The notes under the pieces are model-generated. The model worked only from the letters and a program-made list of their open reading frames with translations, made no database searches and had not been told where the DNA came from. Shown piece after piece: positions 3,580 through 39,455 of a stretch of DNA of 64,000 nt. The stretch comes from Escherichia coli (lineage in GTDB: Bacteria > Pseudomonadota > Gammaproteobacteria > Enterobacterales > Enterobacteriaceae), in NCBI RefSeq assembly GCF_003334765.1, contig NZ_QOWT01000002.1; one strand, given 5' to 3'. Numbering within the stretch: the stretch's first letter is position 1; each line of letters starts with the position of its first letter. The position numbers and the translations under genes are program-made.

Positions 3580-5169
3580 ATGACGCAAACTCTGTTAGCG
3601 ATTGAAAATTTGTCGGTGGGTTTTCGCCATCAGCAAACCGTACGTACAGTAGTCAATGATGTTTCACTACAGATTGAGGCTGGCGAAACGCTGGCGCTGG
3701 TGGGTGAGTCAGGTTCAGGCAAAAGCGTTACCGCGCTGTCAATTTTACGCCTGCTCCCTTCCCCGCCGGTTGAATATCTCTCCGGCGATATTCGTTTTCA
3801 TGGCGAATCGCTGCTTCACGCCAGCGATCAAACGTTGCGCGGTGTACGCGGTAATAAGATCGCCATGATTTTTCAGGAACCGATGGTGTCGTTAAATCCA
3901 TTGCATACCCTGGAAAAACAGCTTTATGAAGTGCTTTCACTCCACCGCGGGATGCGTCGGGAAGCGGCTCGTGGCGAAATTCTTAACTGCCTTGATCGCG
4001 TTGGTATCCGCCAGGCGGCAAAACGGCTGACAGATTATCCGCATCAGCTCTCCGGCGGCGAACGGCAGCGGGTGATGATTGCGATGGCGCTGTTAACGCG
4101 ACCGGAATTATTAATTGCCGATGAACCGACCACCGCACTGGACGTCTCTGTCCAGGCGCAGATTTTACAGCTGTTGCGCGAACTGCAAGGCGAGCTGAAT
4201 ATGGGCATGCTGTTTATTACTCATAACCTCAGCATTGTCAGAAAACTGGCCCACCGCGTGGCGGTAATGCAAAACGGTCGCTGTGTCGAGCAAAATTACG
4301 CCGCTACGCTATTTGCATCACCCACTCATCCTTACACACAAAAGCTACTCAACAGTGAACCGTCAGGCGATCCAGTGCCGTTGCCAGAACCTGCCTCAAC
4401 GTTGCTGGATGTTGAACAGCTTCAGGTTGCCTTCCCCATTCGCAAAGGGATTTTGAAGCGCATTGTGGATCATAATGTGGTGGTGAAAAACATCAGTTTT
4501 ACGCTACGAGCGGGTGAAACACTGGGTTTAGTGGGCGAGTCCGGTTCCGGGAAAAGTACGACGGGACTGGCGCTGCTGCGACTGATTAATTCTCAGGGCA
4601 GCATCATCTTTGACGGTCAGCCACTGCAAAATTTAAATCGCCGCCAGCTGTTACCTATTCGTCATCGCATTCAGGTGGTATTTCAGGATCCAAACTCCTC
4701 GCTCAACCCACGACTCAACGTTTTGCAGATTATTGAGGAAGGCTTACGGGTTCACCAGCCGACGCTTTCTGCCGCACAACGCGAACAACAAGTGATAGCC
4801 GTGATGCATGAAGTGGGATTAGATCCTGAAACACGCCACCGTTATCCGGCGGAGTTCTCTGGTGGTCAGCGACAACGTATTGCGATTGCCAGGGCATTAA
4901 TTCTTAAGCCCTCGCTGATCATACTTGATGAACCGACATCATCACTCGACAAAACGGTACAGGCGCAAATATTGACGCTATTGAAATCATTGCAACAAAA
5001 GCATCAACTGGCCTATTTGTTTATCAGCCACGATTTGCACGTTGTCCGCGCGTTATGTCATCAGGTTATCATACTGCGACAAGGGGAAGTAGTGGAACAA
5101 GGACCGTGCGCGCGCGTGTTTGCCACACCGCAGCAGGAGTATACGCGTCAGCTACTGGCGTTGAGCTGA
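3580..5169 (+). CDS. yejF: ABC transporter ATP-binding protein with two fused ATPase domains
   Basis: Two Walker A motifs GESGSGKS and two signature motifs LSGGERQR / FSGGQRQR; ATG at 3580 (MTQTLLAIENL) is 1 nt after the yejE TAG; the ORF-track start at 3532 is rejected as an extension. Confidence 0.93.
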   Translation: MTQTLLAIENLSVGFRHQQTVRTVVNDVSLQIEAGETLALVGESGSGKSVTALSILRLLPSPPVEYLSGDIRFHGESLLHASDQTLRGVRGNKIAMIFQEPMVSLNPLHTLEKQLYEVLSLHRGMRREAARGEILNCLDRVGIRQAAKRLTDYPHQLSGGERQRVMIAMALLTRPELLIADEPTTALDVSVQAQILQLLRELQGELNMGMLFITHNLSIVRKLAHRVAVMQNGRCVEQNYAATLFASPTHPYTQKLLNSEPSGDPVPLPEPASTLLDVEQLQVAFPIRKGILKRIVDHNVVVKNISFTLRAGETLGLVGESGSGKSTTGLALLRLINSQGSIIFDGQPLQNLNRRQLLPIRHRIQVVFQDPNSSLNPRLNVLQIIEEGLRVHQPTLSAAQREQQVIAVMHEVGLDPETRHRYPAEFSGGQRQRIAIARALILKPSLIILDEPTSSLDKTVQAQILTLLKSLQQKHQLAYLFISHDLHVVRALCHQVIILRQGEVVEQGPCARVFATPQQEYTRQLLALS

Positions 5170-5172
5170 CGC

Positions 5173-5517
5173 TTAAAAAGGATTGTAGTTTGAAAAGGGT
5201 TCGGCAATTGCCACACCAAAATTTTTCAATCGGCATGTTGCAGCAAACTCGTCCTGGCGATTTACAAACAGGCACGGCTCACCTTCACACTCCAGCACCG
5301 AACATGGAACTTCGATGTCGCTTAACGCCTGGCTTAGTTTATACATCACCGACCATGCATTATCACCATCCGGGCTAAGCAATTTAAGCGCCACCAGGCT
5401 GTTGTCACCGCACGGTCCATTTTGCGGAATCGGTTCAACCTTCGAACCTGCGAAACCAGCAGACCAGCGATAGTTCTGCGGCAGTCGATGGACGATTGAG
5501 AGTTGTAATGAAGTCAC
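5173..5517 (-). CDS. yejG: Small conserved protein of unknown function
   Basis: 114-aa ORF convergent on yejF; matches my memory of YejG. Confidence 0.8.
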
Positions 5518-5811
5518 TTATTTTCCCCGGAAGCACATTCACTTCACAATTTGTTTACATCAATTTTAACACATCATCAACAATCCGTCTTTATACAGAT
5601 CGTAAAGATTGATGCCTCGCCTGCGTGGCCTCTATGGCTCTGATTTAAGTAATATCTGCGGGCGTGGTCACGTTTGCGGGGCTATATGTACCCGTTTCTG
5701 CGATCTAACTCAACCTTTTTAACTACAATGATGTGACTTTTTACATAAATTGATTTTACATAAAATAAACATATATCGGGGGAATGATAGATTTGTGGTT
5801 GACATGCATCA

Positions 5812-5835
5812 ACAAAGGAAGCCTTTTAGCTTCCT
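5812..5835 (-). terminator. Putative rho-independent terminator downstream of bcr
   Basis: Hairpin ggaagc-ctttta-gcttcc followed by T-rich tract on the minus strand, just 3' of the bcr stop. Confidence 0.5.
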
Positions 5836-5849
5836 CGTTGTGCAATAGA

Positions 5850-7040
5850 TCACCGTTTTTTCGGCCGACTGGCGTACAGACAGAAGAGAATGGAGCTGGT
5901 TGCGCAGAATGCAATTGACCAAATCATCGGCCATGCAGAGTTAAAGGTCGCAAGAGAAAGCAATGCGCCAACAATTGCCCCTATGCCAAAACGGAAGGTT
6001 CCTGCCAGCGAAGATGCCGTTCCCGCCATATGGGGAAACTCATCAAGAATGACCGCCATCGCATTGGATGACACCATCGACACGCAGCCCACAAACGCCG
6101 CAACGCCAACCACCAGCGACCAAAATCCCAGCCCCAGCAGCGCACTGATGACCATCCACGCTGCCATAATAAATTGTATCCACAACCCCGAGCGGAACAT
6201 ATTTAACGCGCCAATGCGGCGGACGAAGCGGCTGTTAAAGATGGTCATCACGAACAGAAAAACAATGTTTAGCGCAAAGTAATAACCAAAGTTTTCCGGC
6301 GCGACGTGGTTAATTTCAATATAAACAAACGGTCCGGCGCTTAAGAATGAGAACATCCCGGCAAAGCTGAAACCACTGGCAAGCATGTAGCTCAGGACAC
6401 GTTTATGGCGGAACAGCGCCGCAAAGTTACCAATAGTGGTACGAATGTGAAATGGCTGACGACGCTCCGGTGGTAAGGTTTCTTTAATCAGGAAGAAAAT
6501 CATTGCCGAAGCCAGAATCGCCGCTAATGCCAGGATCCAGAAGATGTAATGCCAGCTCAGCCACACCAGCACCCAGCCGCCAACTATCGGTGCCATCAGC
6601 GGTGCAATGGTTGTCACCAGCATGACAAACGACATCATCCGCGAGAACTCTTCTTTCGGGTAAATATCGCGCATCAGGGCGTTAATGACCACGCTGGCCG
6701 CAGCCGCAGCCAGCCCGTGGAAGAAACGCATCACAATCAGCTGATCGATGGTGTTTGCCAACGCACACGCCACCGCGGCGGCGGCAAACACCAGCGTACC
6801 GCCGAGCACCACCGGCTTACGCCCGAAGCTGTCTGCCATCGGCCCGTAGATTAACTGCCCCAACGCAAAGCCCAGAATATAAGTACTGAGGGTCATCTGC
6901 GTACTGCCCGCCGGTACGCCAAACTGCGCTGAAATTACCGGTAGCGCGGGCAGATACATATCAATCGACAGCGGCATCAACATGGCCAGCAGGCCAAGGA
7001 TAAAAACAATAGCAAACGACGAATGCTGTCGGGTGGTCAC
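5850..7040 (-). CDS. bcr: MFS efflux transporter (bicyclomycin/sulfonamide resistance)
   Basis: 396 aa, 12-TM MFS profile. Confidence 0.92.
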
Positions 7041-10219: not shown

Positions 10220-11227
10220 TTAATTGCCGCCAGACGTCCGGCGCTGCAATTGGTCGCGCAAATTCGGCGGCGTGCCTTTAATGGTCAAGGTATCGGTTGC
10301 TGGATCCCAGAAGATGCGTTCACCTAACAGCATCGCATCAAAGTTAATAGTCAAGCCACCGCCGCTACCGGCAAACTTCGTCAACTGACGCAGTGTGCTA
10401 CGGTCTGCCGGGAAGCTCTCTTCCAGTTCGTAGCCTTTTTCAGCCGCAAACTCCGTGAAGCTCACTTCGCTTACGCCTGCCAGCTCTTTCGACAGCGATT
10501 TCAGTTCGATCTCTTCGCCTGCCTGCAGCTGCTCATTACAGTAGCTATAAACCTGCTGGCGCACGTTCTGTCGCTCTGCTTTATCCAGTTGTGCTTCGGC
10601 AGTGAAATCATCAACCGCTTGCAACAGCCCACGGTTTTGCGCTTTCGCGTTTAACCCTTCGCTGGCCCCGAGGAAATCCATAAAGAAATCCGCCACTTTG
10701 CGCCCTACTCGCCCTTTCAGGAAAGTGAGATAGCGGGTGGACTCTGGATTGGTTTCCCATTCGGTTAAATCGATACGCGCAACAATATCCGCATGATTGA
10801 TATCAAGATAATGGGTTGGGTTGATGTCGAGATTTTCGTTAACGCGCATACTGCTCAGGTTGCTCAGAACTGCCACCAGCAAATACTCCACCGCCAGATA
10901 GCGATAGTGGCAAAACAGCACGAATCCACCGTCAGCAAAAGGATATTTCGCTAATTCGTCACGCAGGCGGCCGGTTGCCGCGCGGCTAAATGCCAGGAAG
11001 TCCTCTTCGCCCTGACGCTGTAAGCGCAGCGTCTGCGCCAGTTCACTCTCTTCGCTAAACAAGCCGTAAGCTTTATTTTTGGCGCTATAGACCCGATGCA
11101 GTTCTGCCACCATCTCAACGACGGTTTCTGTCGGTTCCAGCAATGAATCGCGCAACACCAGCTCAAGGTTCTGCTCATCACGCTTGATAAGCTGGTGCAG
11201 AGCAATCTGGTTGATATCCAGACTCAT
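10220..11227 (-). CDS. yejK: Nucleoid-associated protein NdpA (YejK)
   Basis: 335-aa ORF; sequence recognised. Confidence 0.92.
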
Positions 11228-37593: not shown

Positions 37594-37613
37594 TTGTTCG
37601 ATATCAATCGAGA

Positions 37614-39144: not shown

Positions 39145-39455
39145 ACCCTTCTTTACACACTTTTCATTATTCTGTGCTACCACAGAAAAACTATAACGCT
39201 TGTTAACTATTTCACAAATAATTAACATCCGCATAATTTCCAGCAATCTTTGTTTATTTGCAATTATTTTTGTTGGGCTTTTTGTAGGTTATTTGTACAG
39301 CAAAATGGCGCTTGTACATCTATTTCCCCCAATGCAGGATGATAAATATCACGGGAGAATAGAGAATCATCAATCAGGTAAGAGTCTGGAATTTCACACT
39401 GTACCCTTTATACTGCCCTATCACTTCGCGAAGTTTTAACAGGTCATAAACACGA

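Follow-up and report, generated by a model that had tools for sequence, protein, structure and literature searches.

The spacer between yejG and bcr contains an 11-nt direct repeat and, some distance further on, a palindrome of the FNR type, which raises the question of whether these elements control a gene or are products of chance. An earlier note on this DNA had described both and knew of no regulation at this place. The window (the whole stretch of DNA that was analyzed, 64,000 nucleotides) is Escherichia coli K-12-like DNA, and its yejG/bcr region is identical to that of MG1655. Published positions in U00096.2 were converted to NC_000913.3 by adding 1978 and then to window positions by subtracting 2,272,720; the position of the palindrome and the coordinates of yejG served as checks. 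For simulations, the yejG-bcr spacer was taken at its length of 332 bp.

yejG is read on the minus strand, and the 75-bp stretch that holds both elements is the upstream half of its oxygen-responsive control region. Both the repeat and the palindrome exist; they are regulatory DNA upstream of yejG with strong conservation and are already contained in published genome-wide tables. What is new in our analysis is the conservation of the palindrome. The function of the small protein YejG is not known; its gene is induced when cells pass into stationary phase and falls into the same cluster as the fad genes. An Rfam scan of positions 5100-6300 at E <= 1 found no known RNA family; a sub-threshold match to a eukaryotic lncRNA (21.7 bits versus a gathering score of 80) is meaningless.

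Promoters and oxygen response of yejG

Two sigma-70 promoters of yejG, P1 and P2, have been mapped by primer extension (dPeak paper). They lie at or near the following features.

5677 to 5714, minus strand: promoter P2, with a putative -35 TTGAGT (5714 to 5709), an 18-bp spacer, a putative -10 TACATA (5690 to 5685) and a start near G5677
5540 to 5583, minus strand: ArcA site 'yejG1', four direct-repeat elements, over promoter P1

The P2 start was placed at U00096.2 2,276,419 by primer extension, and a sigma-70 binding event was predicted by dPeak at 2,276,432; the P2 hexamers TTGAGT and TACATA are our own reading of the sequence. The P2 block is conserved to about 0.94. At P1, which has TGTGTTAAAAT as an extended -10, transcription begins at 5556/5557 and 5545 (2276298 and 2276287 in Kim 2012; 2,276,299 in the dPeak paper).

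Site yejG1 extends from -26 to +18, with a ChIP enrichment of 8.2-8.5 and a box of 18.8 bits (Park 2013). Our ArcA position weight matrix (PWM), built from 114 published ArcA boxes with a training median of 16.5 bits, scores it at 19.7 and 19.4 bits. In an arcA deletion strain, yejG is derepressed 11.9-fold, and it is classed as directly repressed under anaerobic conditions in the tables of that study, the main text of which does not mention yejG (Park 2013). ArcA ChIP-chip under fermentation and nitrate respiration also scored yejG as 'Repression' (Federowicz 2014), and in Salmonella the expression of yejG changes in an arcA-dependent manner.

Occupancy of yejG by sigma-70 is strongly oxygen-dependent. 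The ChIP values are 1461.69 versus 56.14 in a row labelled 'Aerobic' (Myers 2013, PLoS Genet 9:e1003565, Table S2); from this row label, and not from the column header, we take the first as the aerobic value and the second as the anaerobic one. The expression ratio of 4.0 for yejG (Myers 2013, Table S12) is likewise taken as aerobic over anaerobic, not from the header but because in that column the nap genes have values under 1 and the nuo genes over 1. The earlier statement that no regulation is described here thus has to be given up: two promoters, ArcA repression and two ArcA ChIP regions have been published, as have the oxygen-dependent sigma-70 occupancy and a match in CRP genomic SELEX.

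The direct repeat and ArcA site yejG2

The repeat and the second ArcA site upstream of P2 overlap as follows.

5739 to 5749, plus strand: direct repeat copy 1, outside any high-scoring ArcA box; weaker half of a putative CRP-like site
5754 to 5764, plus strand: direct repeat copy 2, TTTTACATAAA, sense strand TTTATGTAAAA; direct-repeat element 2 of an ArcA box
5742 to 5772, minus strand: ArcA site 'yejG2', ATGTTTATTTTATGTAAAATCAATTTATGTA, covering copy 2 and most of copy 1

The two copies of the exact 11-mer TTTTACATAAA are separated by a gap of 4 bp, that is 15 bp from start to start and not 16 bp as first given. When the 332-bp spacer was simulated 3000 times with a Markov-1 model, 21 of the simulated spacers contained an exact 11-nt direct repeat within 60 bp. 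The block that holds the repeat hardly varies between genera, and neither does TTTTATGTAAAAT at copy 2.

Copy 2 is the second direct-repeat element of the yejG2 ArcA box, so that for the repeat, too, a description existed in print. The core box ATGTTTATTTTATGTAAA (5755-5772, minus strand) consists of element 1, TGTTTA, and element 2, TGTAAA, 11 bp apart. It scores 18.5 bits with the ArcA PWM and is among 5 window matches of at least 14.4 bits. In vivo, a ChIP-seq peak at 2276488 with an enrichment of 1.9 and a box of 17.6 bits was resolved from the strong yejG1 peak (Park 2013, Tables S1, S2, S4). The ArcA motif TTACATAAAATAAAC was independently listed at 2276498-2276512, which is 5756-5770 of the window, and the ArcA ChIP-chip region 2275985-2276585 includes the yejG2 site (Federowicz 2014). 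Among the 76 orthologous spacers, 73 have an ArcA box of at least 12 bits. All that characterizes an ArcA operator, namely repeats at 11 bp, in vivo occupancy and arcA-dependent expression, is found here, the expression effect being known for yejG as a whole.

The two TTTTACATAAA copies could instead be the tandem site of another response regulator (CpxR with GTAAA-N5-GTAAA, PhoP with TGTTTA-N5-TGTTTA, or an OmpR-like protein). TGTTTA-N5-TGTAAA presumably resembles a PhoP box, as far as can be judged by eye, and GTAAA recurs. However, the spacing of GTAAA is N10 and not N5, ArcA has been cross-linked here experimentally at a box with a high PWM score, and the literature searched links yejG to none of these regulators. 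We consider such a tandem site extremely unlikely and retain the ArcA box as the reading of copy 2.

Copy 1 is a different matter. No ArcA PWM match of at least 8 bits covers it, and its distance to ArcA element 2 is 15 bp, not 11 or 22 bp, which puts it out of the ArcA register. In many genera copy 1 reads TTTGTGTAAAA; there the 11-mer repeat is inexact and the match to a CRP site is better.

A CRP-like site upstream of P2

Together with a conserved TCACA 6 bp downstream, copy 1 may form a CRP-like site at about -62 from P2.

5729 to 5750, minus strand: candidate CRP-like 22-mer, TATGT-AAAAAG-TCACA (sense), with TGTGT in many species

We infer this putative CRP site from its sequence. With 5677 (+/-1) as the start of P2, its centre at 5739.5 corresponds to -62.5 (or -61.5). 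The match to TGTGA-N6-TCACA is 8/10 in E. coli, a level reached 21 times in the window versus 25 expected and so not above chance, and rises to 9/10 (TGTGT...TCACA) in many genera. TCACA is nearly invariant except in Klebsiella, where both CRP halves are lost. A CRP genomic SELEX-chip peak lies in the yejG-bcr spacer, for which the authors chose other boxes, and the Crp ChIP-exo supplements contain no entry for yejG. A position of about -62 is that of class I activation, which fits yejG as a CRP SELEX target and as a gene induced by carbon starvation.

The FNR-type palindrome

Upstream of the repeat, in the sense of yejG transcription, the following features adjoin each other.

5774 to 5798, minus strand: spacer of fixed length (25-26 nt), variable in sequence, mean conservation 0.54
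5799 to 5812, no strand assigned: FNR-type palindrome, TTGACATGCATCAA, yejG-sense strand TTGATGCATGTCAA, centre 5805.5
5816 to 5838, minus strand: hairpin consistent with the bcr intrinsic terminator, GAGGAAGC-UAAAAG-GCUUCCUU, with a U-rich tract behind it that extends into the palindrome

The palindrome begins 34 nt after the second repeat copy and matches TTGAT-N4-ATCAA at 9 of 10 positions; the near-perfect site noticed earlier at 5799-5812 is present. Its placement directly after the bcr terminator was also correctly described. 'Far upstream' of yejG does not apply in functional terms, as the repeats are at -62 to -87 of P2. A CRP site had been considered as well, and this reading of the palindrome is unlikely because the halves are TTGA/TCAA and not GTGA/TCAC.

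We scanned the window with an FNR PWM built from 63 ChIP-bound FNR sites, the median bound site having 15.2 bits. In this matrix scan, one of the checks proposed in the earlier note, the palindrome reached 15.5 bits, above the median of the bound sites and the best match in the 64-kb window. By chance, a palindrome with at most one mismatch occurs in 100 of 3000 simulated spacers; the window has 5 such palindromes versus 2.45 expected, which is not significant.

The site has been listed before, at U00096.2 2276541 with a PatSer score of 14.14 and ln p of -12.62, as a high-scoring predicted FNR site without FNR ChIP-seq peak, termed 'silent' (Myers 2013, Table S6). FNR ChIP-seq and ChIP-chip in glucose minimal medium gave no peak at yejG, which is also not among the FNR peaks unmasked in the hns/stpA double deletion strain (Myers 2013). 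The Fnr tables for fermentative and nitrate conditions do not contain yejG either (Federowicz 2014, Tables S3, S4). Altogether, the second check, for an FNR ChIP signal, found none in two studies and three anaerobic conditions, all in K-12. Comparisons of wild type and fnr deletion strain (Tables S8 and S10) lack yejG, which appears only in the oxygen-dependent Tables S2 and S12 (Myers 2013). Federowicz 2014 has a further table labelled as Fnr motifs (Table S6); for yejG it repeats the ArcA-motif rows and is not Fnr evidence.

The centre of the palindrome is at -128.5 from the P2 start and at -248.5 from P1; a value of -28.5 is obtained only for a putative promoter TTGATG-17-TATCAT. FNR acts from about -41.5 at class II promoters, from -61.5 to -92.5 at class I promoters, and by overlapping the core promoter in repression. 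The position of the palindrome matches no standard FNR geometry of activation or repression. A class II promoter with the site at -41.5 and a start near 5764 was considered and rejected, as the -10 region needed at 5776-5771 is not conserved and no such start has been reported.

Conservation and spacing of the palindrome

We compared 76 enterobacterial sequences. The palindrome is perfect in 38 and has one mismatch in another 24, so that 62 of the 76 have it with at most one mismatch, as do 22 of 31 lineages; the check for conservation in Enterobacteriaceae thus came out in favor of the site. In relatives the consensus is mostly perfect, and the N4 centre varies. Conservation of the half-sites is 0.90 and 0.87, compared with 0.67 for N4 and 0.54-0.66 for the flanks. 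Over the half-site columns, the majority-base frequency is 0.89. In a sliding-window comparison, none of 118 windows from non-conserved parts of the same spacer reached this value (mean 0.55, maximum 0.79). A perfected palindrome in some E. coli strains was considered and rejected, since the perfected 66-mer had no match among 5,426 complete genomes.

The spacing is conserved, too. In 65 of 69 sequences, the palindrome is 122-123 bp away from the P2 -10 block, and in one the distance is 112 bp, even though the 25 nt between them are free to vary. The upstream palindrome is missing from three sequences, those of the two Superficieibacter species and of the MAG UBA5654; in these, a perfect TTGATGTGAATCAA overlies P1, and a site of 13.8 bits overlies the P2 -35. 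Taken by itself, the E. coli sequence is weak evidence for the repeat as for the palindrome, and it is conservation that lifts both motifs above chance.

Beside the palindrome lies an invariant block of about 95 bp, which includes the P2 spacer.

Conservation bears directly on the possibility that the palindrome is a non-functional 'silent' match, retained because the region diverges little and not because of selection. Such a match would account for the missing ChIP signal and the missing fnr-dependent expression, and in E. coli alone the palindrome is within chance for a 64-kb window. However, the flanks diverge freely in the same set of species (0.54-0.66 versus 0.89 for the half-sites), no control window is as conserved, and the spacing is fixed. 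We regard a silent match as quite improbable; the palindrome is probably functional, with FNR as its putative binder.

Alternative functions of the palindrome

Conservation might also stem from the neighboring terminator. The hairpin folds at -19 to -22 kcal/mol (-19.2 to -21.6; z = -5.2), and none of 200 shuffles was as good. Nearly all genera retain a hairpin here, with differing sequence (GGAAGC/GCTTCC, GGGGGC/GCCCCC, GGAGGT/GCCTCC). The palindrome could then be conserved as part of the terminator, as U-tract and extended stem, and not as a protein-binding site. It always follows the hairpin by 0-4 nt, and the minimum-free-energy fold of the E. coli sequence pairs UUUGUUGAUGC with an upstream GCACAAC. 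Since the T-tract and TTGAT pair in this extended stem in E. coli, the left half could partly be conserved for termination. Against this, the RNA would end within the U-tract, which leaves the distal half-site (5799-5803, 0.87 conserved) without a role, and the partner GCACAAC is not conserved outside close relatives. Moreover, the hairpin sequence varies freely while TTGAT/ATCAA does not, and the fixed distance of 122-123 bp to P2 stays unexplained. A purely terminator-related role is very unlikely in our judgement. An RNA hairpin of the palindrome itself was rejected: alone it folds at -4.5 kcal/mol (z = -1.95), it is absent from the larger fold, and the one-sided changes in relatives do not look compensatory.

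In a promoter scan, TTGATG (5812 to 5807) pairs with a -10-like TATCAT (5789 to 5784), and the palindrome could thus provide the -35 of a third sigma-70 promoter of yejG, TTGATG-17-TATCAT with a start near 5777, its FNR symmetry being incidental or FNR simply occluding the promoter. The scan match is 9/12, and the same hexamers are listed for an RpoD-holoenzyme SELEX peak in the yejG-bcr spacer (Shimada 2014). Yet TATCAT is confined to Escherichia, some Citrobacter and Salmonella (there as CATCAT), whereas the palindrome is present in more than 20 lineages, and a -35 role does not explain why the second half-site, ATCAA(C), is conserved. Experimentally, dPeak resolved only two sigma-70 events, primer extension only P1 and P2, and there is no start near 2276519 in Kim 2012. 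A third promoter with the palindrome as its -35 is unlikely, and we continue to read the palindrome as a putative operator. In the other direction, a plus-strand promoter antisense to bcr with TTGACA at 5799-5804 was rejected, as an acceptable -10 is missing at 16-19 bp, where the variable terminator lies.

A functional palindrome need not be bound by FNR. E. coli has a third member of the CRP/FNR family, YeiL, with unknown target, and YeiL or a nucleoid protein such as Fis may occupy the site. FNR ChIP signal is missing despite a PWM score above that of many bound sites, and Fis ChIP-seq enrichment overlaps the palindrome (Myers 2013). Another protein at the palindrome, for example Fis, would explain the missing FNR signal. 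On the other hand, conservation falls precisely on the FNR-discriminating TTGAT/ATCAA and leaves N4 free, and the replacement sites in lineages without the palindrome also have the FNR consensus. Fis in particular lacks a symmetric 5-4-5 motif of this kind, and its ChIP-seq data come from aerobic cultures. We give a binder other than FNR a small probability.

Other motifs were compared by eye with consensus sequences. None of TyrR box, CpxR, PhoP, OmpR and Fis fits the spacing or the conservation; a PurR-box-like CGCAAACG near the P2 start is restricted to Escherichia, and an NsrR motif (GATGCAT) is not kept in relatives.

Proposed control of yejG

The published data show that yejG is transcribed from the sigma-70 promoters P1 and P2, and that phosphorylated ArcA directly represses it under anaerobiosis, with occupancy of the strong four-repeat site over P1 and of the weaker site at 5742-5772. 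The palindrome would be an operator for FNR or a protein of FNR-like specificity; it is maintained immediately behind the bcr terminator, with constant spacing to the ArcA box and to P2. Its most likely role is to supply P2 with a second anaerobic input. We favor joint repression with ArcA, or an occluding effect on the -35-like TTGATG, which is lineage-specific, and this input would act in conditions or species beyond the K-12 ChIP sampling. We lean modestly towards the whole model, in which established ArcA repression is combined with a putative CRP-like site at copy 1 and a putative FNR-like operator at the palindrome.

A more far-reaching proposal, which we put forward tentatively and rate somewhat short of probable, is that this silent FNR motif, for which all K-12 ChIP experiments to date show no occupancy, is under strong purifying selection as a conditionally used operator, and that the 95-bp block holds at least one further undescribed regulator site. 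FNR could be unmasked there once ArcA, Fis or another occupant leaves, or the operator could serve a CRP/FNR-type protein such as YeiL.

As a discovery, the two motifs have little weight, both being in supplementary tables of E. coli regulon studies. The control region of yejG is unusually constrained, with two ArcA sites, a CRP-like site, an FNR-type site and an invariant promoter spacer, and this constraint may help to work out the role of YejG. Many high-scoring motifs that lack a ChIP signal are dismissed as silent. The palindrome, whose phylogenetic footprint is clean and whose spacing is fixed, lends itself well to testing whether silent sites are masked, condition-specific operators or noise.

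Comparison with known systems

Site yejG2 resembles the ArcA operators with multiple direct repeats (yejG1, mqo, rcsD; Park et al. 2013, PLoS Genet 9:e1003839) in its TGTTA/TGTAA elements with 11 bp from centre to centre, in its ChIP occupancy, and in the repression of a gene of the carbon-oxidation or starvation type. It differs in being located upstream of P2 (-65 to -95) and not over the promoter core, in its weak ChIP enrichment (1.9), and in a poor third element (1.4 bits).

For the CRP-like site, the pertinent comparison is with class I promoters of the lac type, where the CRP site is centred near -61.5. The putative site upstream of yejG is likewise centred at -61.5 or -62.5 from a mapped start, that of P2, upstream of an A-tract and the -35. 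It differs in that the match in E. coli is only 8/10 and that binding is known at SELEX-chip resolution only.

The ndh promoter is an example of FNR-repressed promoters with upstream or multiple FNR sites; FNR binding and repression have been demonstrated there, and the sites lie within about 100 bp of the start. Like ndh, yejG is expressed aerobically and also controlled by ArcA, and a site with the FNR consensus precedes its core promoter. In contrast to ndh, the centre of the palindrome is at -128.5, and neither FNR binding nor an effect of fnr has been seen.

Finally, the palindrome is literally one of the 'silent' FNR sites of Myers 2013. In that study, silent sites were treated as masked or unused, without regard to conservation, whereas the site upstream of yejG is kept at a fixed distance from P2, mostly with the perfect consensus.

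Promoters and oxygen response of yejG

Window 5100-5900 has the same sequence as E. coli K-12 MG1655, and published positions were converted accordingly (window position = NC_000913.3 position - 2,272,720; U00096.2 + 1978 = NC_000913.3). As yejG and bcr are both encoded on the minus strand, the spacer between them is the upstream region of yejG.

5173-5517, minus strand: yejG
5518-5849: yejG-bcr spacer, 332 bp
5850-7040, minus strand: bcr

The spacer is present in 5,426/5,426 complete E. coli genomes with 95-100% identity. When one genome per species was scanned, yejG was located at 80 loci, with the bcr-yejG order retained and a spacer of about 330 bp in most. In Salmonella, 45-60 bp are inserted between the bcr stop codon and its terminator, whereas in the Enterobacter asburiae group (spacer ~277 bp) and in ENT03 (spacer 220 bp) part of the poorly conserved stretch from promoter P2 to promoter P1 is deleted. 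All of these variants retain an intact palindrome, ArcA box and P2 block (see below).

Regulation at this locus has in fact been described, contrary to the earlier note, in the form of mapped promoters, ArcA regions, a CRP SELEX target and a tabulated entry for the palindrome itself. Upstream of yejG, the dPeak study (PMC3798280) distinguished two sigma-70 binding events and demonstrated two starts by primer extension, P1 at U00096.2 2,276,299 (window ~5557) and P2 at 2,276,419 (window ~5677). Kim et al. (2012) reported yejG starts at window 5556 and 5545. In the yejG entry of Table S2 of Myers et al. (2013; PMC3688515), with the row label 'Aerobic', sigma-70 occupancy is 1461.69 versus 56.14, which we read as aerobic and anaerobic values, respectively. 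For expression, their Table S12 reports a yejG ratio of 4.0, taken as aerobic/anaerobic because that column has values under 1 for nap genes and over 1 for nuo genes.

The direct repeat and the ArcA sites

The sequence TTTTACATAAA has exactly two exact copies in the 64-kb window, at 5739-5749 (copy 1) and 5754-5764 (copy 2). The repeat noted earlier is thus present, with a start-to-start distance of 15 bp and not 16 bp. Of 3000 simulated spacers, 21 contained a direct repeat of 11 nt within 60 bp. Park et al. (2013; PMC3798270) demonstrated ArcA occupancy in two regions at yejG.

5540-5583: region yejG1, four direct repeats, -26 to +18 of P1, enrichment 8.2-8.5
5742-5772: region yejG2, ATGTTTATTTTATGTAAAATCAATTTATGTA, enrichment 1.9, box of 17.6 bits

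In their arcA deletion strain, yejG was 11.9-fold derepressed, and it was placed among the directly repressed operons. Independent ArcA ChIP-chip regions at yejG, scored as repression, were found under fermentation and nitrate respiration by Federowicz et al. (2014; PMC3974632), with an ArcA motif at window 5756-5770. arcA also affects yejG in Salmonella.

With a matrix built from 114 published ArcA boxes, excluding yejG1, ATGTTTATTTTATGTAAA (5755-5772, minus strand) scored 18.5 bits (training median 16.5). Only five matches in the window reached at least 14.4 bits: this box, two boxes at yejG P1, and the mqo and rcsD sites. The highest scores in the window, 22.1 bits (39211-39228) and 21.3 bits (32782-32799), both on the minus strand, belong to the published rcsD and mqo boxes.

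Copy 2 lies inside the ArcA site, as the second direct-repeat element (TGTAAA) of the 5755-5772 box. Copy 1 is 15 bp off, outside the 11-bp ArcA register, and no ArcA-matrix match of at least 8 bits covers it. Together with a conserved TCACA 6 bp downstream, copy 1 forms the CRP-like element TATGT-AAAAAG-TCACA, whose centre (5739.5) is at about -62 relative to the P2 start. Many genera have TGTGT-AAAAAG-TCACA, where the 11-mer repeat is inexact and the CRP match improves to 9/10; Klebsiella has lost both halves. yejG is a CRP genomic-SELEX target (Shimada et al., 2011). Because the E. coli match (8/10) is by itself not above chance, and yejG is not among the entries of the Crp ChIP-exo supplements, we treat the element as a putative CRP site, suggested by its sequence. 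The CRP boxes proposed by Shimada et al. (2011) lie elsewhere: TGTGCAATAGATCACC (5839-5854) runs across the bcr stop codon, and TGCGATCTAACTCAAC (5699-5714) overlaps the -35 and spacer of P2, being the P2-core element that scores as FNR-like in Klebsiella and Superficieibacter.

A block of ~95 bp (5680-5773, minus strand) shows almost no variation among over 25 enterobacterial genera. The 18-bp P2 spacer TAGATCGCAGAAACGGG, in which a GATC occurs, and the GC-rich sequence following the -10 both belong to it. Its constraint exceeds the needs of a sigma-70 promoter, an ArcA box and a CRP-like site, and the P2 spacer is conserved beyond what known sites account for. A 22-nt unit beginning CTTTTTA is repeated at 5715 and 5737 (5715-5758, 73% identity), so that A-tracts recur at an interval of two helical turns immediately 5' of the P2 -35; these are possibly UP-element-like or bending DNA. 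Elsewhere in the window, TGTGAAGTGCTCCACC occurs four times with a 113-bp period (30593-30947), which points to a tandem repeat array.

A conserved FNR-type palindrome

5799-5812: palindrome TTGACATGCATCAA, FNR-type TTGAT-N4-ATCAA site

The palindrome was found where the earlier note had placed it. The E. coli sequence alone is weak motif evidence, as palindromes with at most one mismatch arose in 100/3000 simulated spacers and number 5 in the whole window (2.45 expected). Against a matrix of the 63 ChIP-bound FNR sites in Table S6 of Myers et al. (2013), it scored 15.5 bits, above the median bound site (15.2) and the best match in the window. The same table lists it (2276541, PatSer 14.14, ln p -12.62, gene yejG) as one of 124 "silent" predicted FNR sites; an FNR ChIP-seq peak is absent there, and Fis ChIP-seq enrichment overlaps it (PMC3688515). 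The Fnr tables of Federowicz et al. (2014; PMC3974632) do not include yejG; the yejG rows of their Table S6 ('Fnr motifs') are the same as those of Table S5 (ArcA motifs), look duplicated and carry no Fnr evidence. Table S6 of Myers et al. (2013; PMC3688515) also includes, again as unoccupied predicted FNR sites, two further FNR-like 14-mers of the window: ATGATTGATATCAA, inside yejK (10793-10806), and TTGTTCGATATCAA, at apbE (37594-37607).

Conservation was assessed in 76 sequences from 31 lineages. At the homologous place, TTGAT-N4-ATCAA was perfect in 38/76, with one mismatch in 24/76 and two in 7/76, so that 62/76 retain it with no more than one mismatch. The N4 centre differs between sequences (GCAT, GTAC, GTAT, ACAT, AAAC).

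Majority-base frequency by element
Palindrome half-sites: 0.90 and 0.87
N4 centre: 0.67
Variable spacer: 0.54
Terminator hairpin: 0.61

In 118 comparison windows drawn from non-conserved parts of the spacer, conservation peaked at 0.79, below the half-site value in every case. The distance from palindrome start to P2 -10 block is 122 or 123 bp in 65/69 and 112 bp in one. Neutral conservation of the palindrome is contradicted by its divergent flanks, the following 25-26 nt diverging freely.

The single E. coli mismatch to the FNR consensus is GTCAA (yejG-sense strand), and it appears fixed in this species: the 66-mer 5775-5840 is exact in 4,392/5,426 complete genomes, and its version with the consensus base matches none of the 5,426. 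E. albertii, Citrobacter, Salmonella, Klebsiella and Kluyvera mostly have a perfect palindrome, Klebsiella with a P2-core variant in addition. The upstream palindrome is missing from both Superficieibacter species (L044, L052) and the MAG UBA5654 (L057). Two other sites occur in these lineages: a perfect TTGATGTGAATCAA that covers the P1 start, at about -46 relative to the yejG start, and TTGTTTTAGATCAC (13.8 bits) that covers the P2 -35, at about -199. This pattern looks like FNR-site turnover.

Possible roles of the palindrome

The hairpin immediately before the palindrome (5816-5838; -19 to -22 kcal/mol, z = -5.2) is the bcr terminator. The palindrome might be part of it, as the E. coli left half pairs in an extended stem, but the upstream pairing partner is not conserved, and neither the distal half-site nor the fixed spacing to P2 would be explained. 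As an RNA hairpin of its own, the palindrome folds at only -4.5 kcal/mol and does not form in context.

It might also supply the -35 element of a third yejG promoter. Shimada et al. (2014) predicted an RpoD promoter, TTGATG-17-TATCAT, in the spacer, and our local promoter scan recovered the same hexamer pair. However, the -10 is lineage-specific, no start was mapped at that place, and a -35 leaves the second half-site unexplained.

The palindrome is centred at -128.5 from P2, where no standard FNR geometry fits, and FNR occupancy and fnr-dependent yejG expression were sought by others and not found; we therefore do not class it as a demonstrated FNR site. Binding by a protein other than FNR is possible. 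We infer a selected operator with FNR specificity, in register with the ArcA/P2 module. In the reading that we prefer, it would serve as a second, conditional anaerobic input acting together with ArcA; alternatively, in the Escherichia/Citrobacter/Salmonella group, its occupancy may occlude the -35-like TTGATG.

The repeat and palindrome are real and functional-looking, and they are already known as catalogued parts of an ArcA-repressed, oxygen-responsive control region. Modest interest remains in the ~95-bp invariant block (5680-5773) and in the conserved but unoccupied palindrome; what is new relative to the published region is that an FNR-type site published as silent proves deeply conserved and is kept at a fixed spacing.
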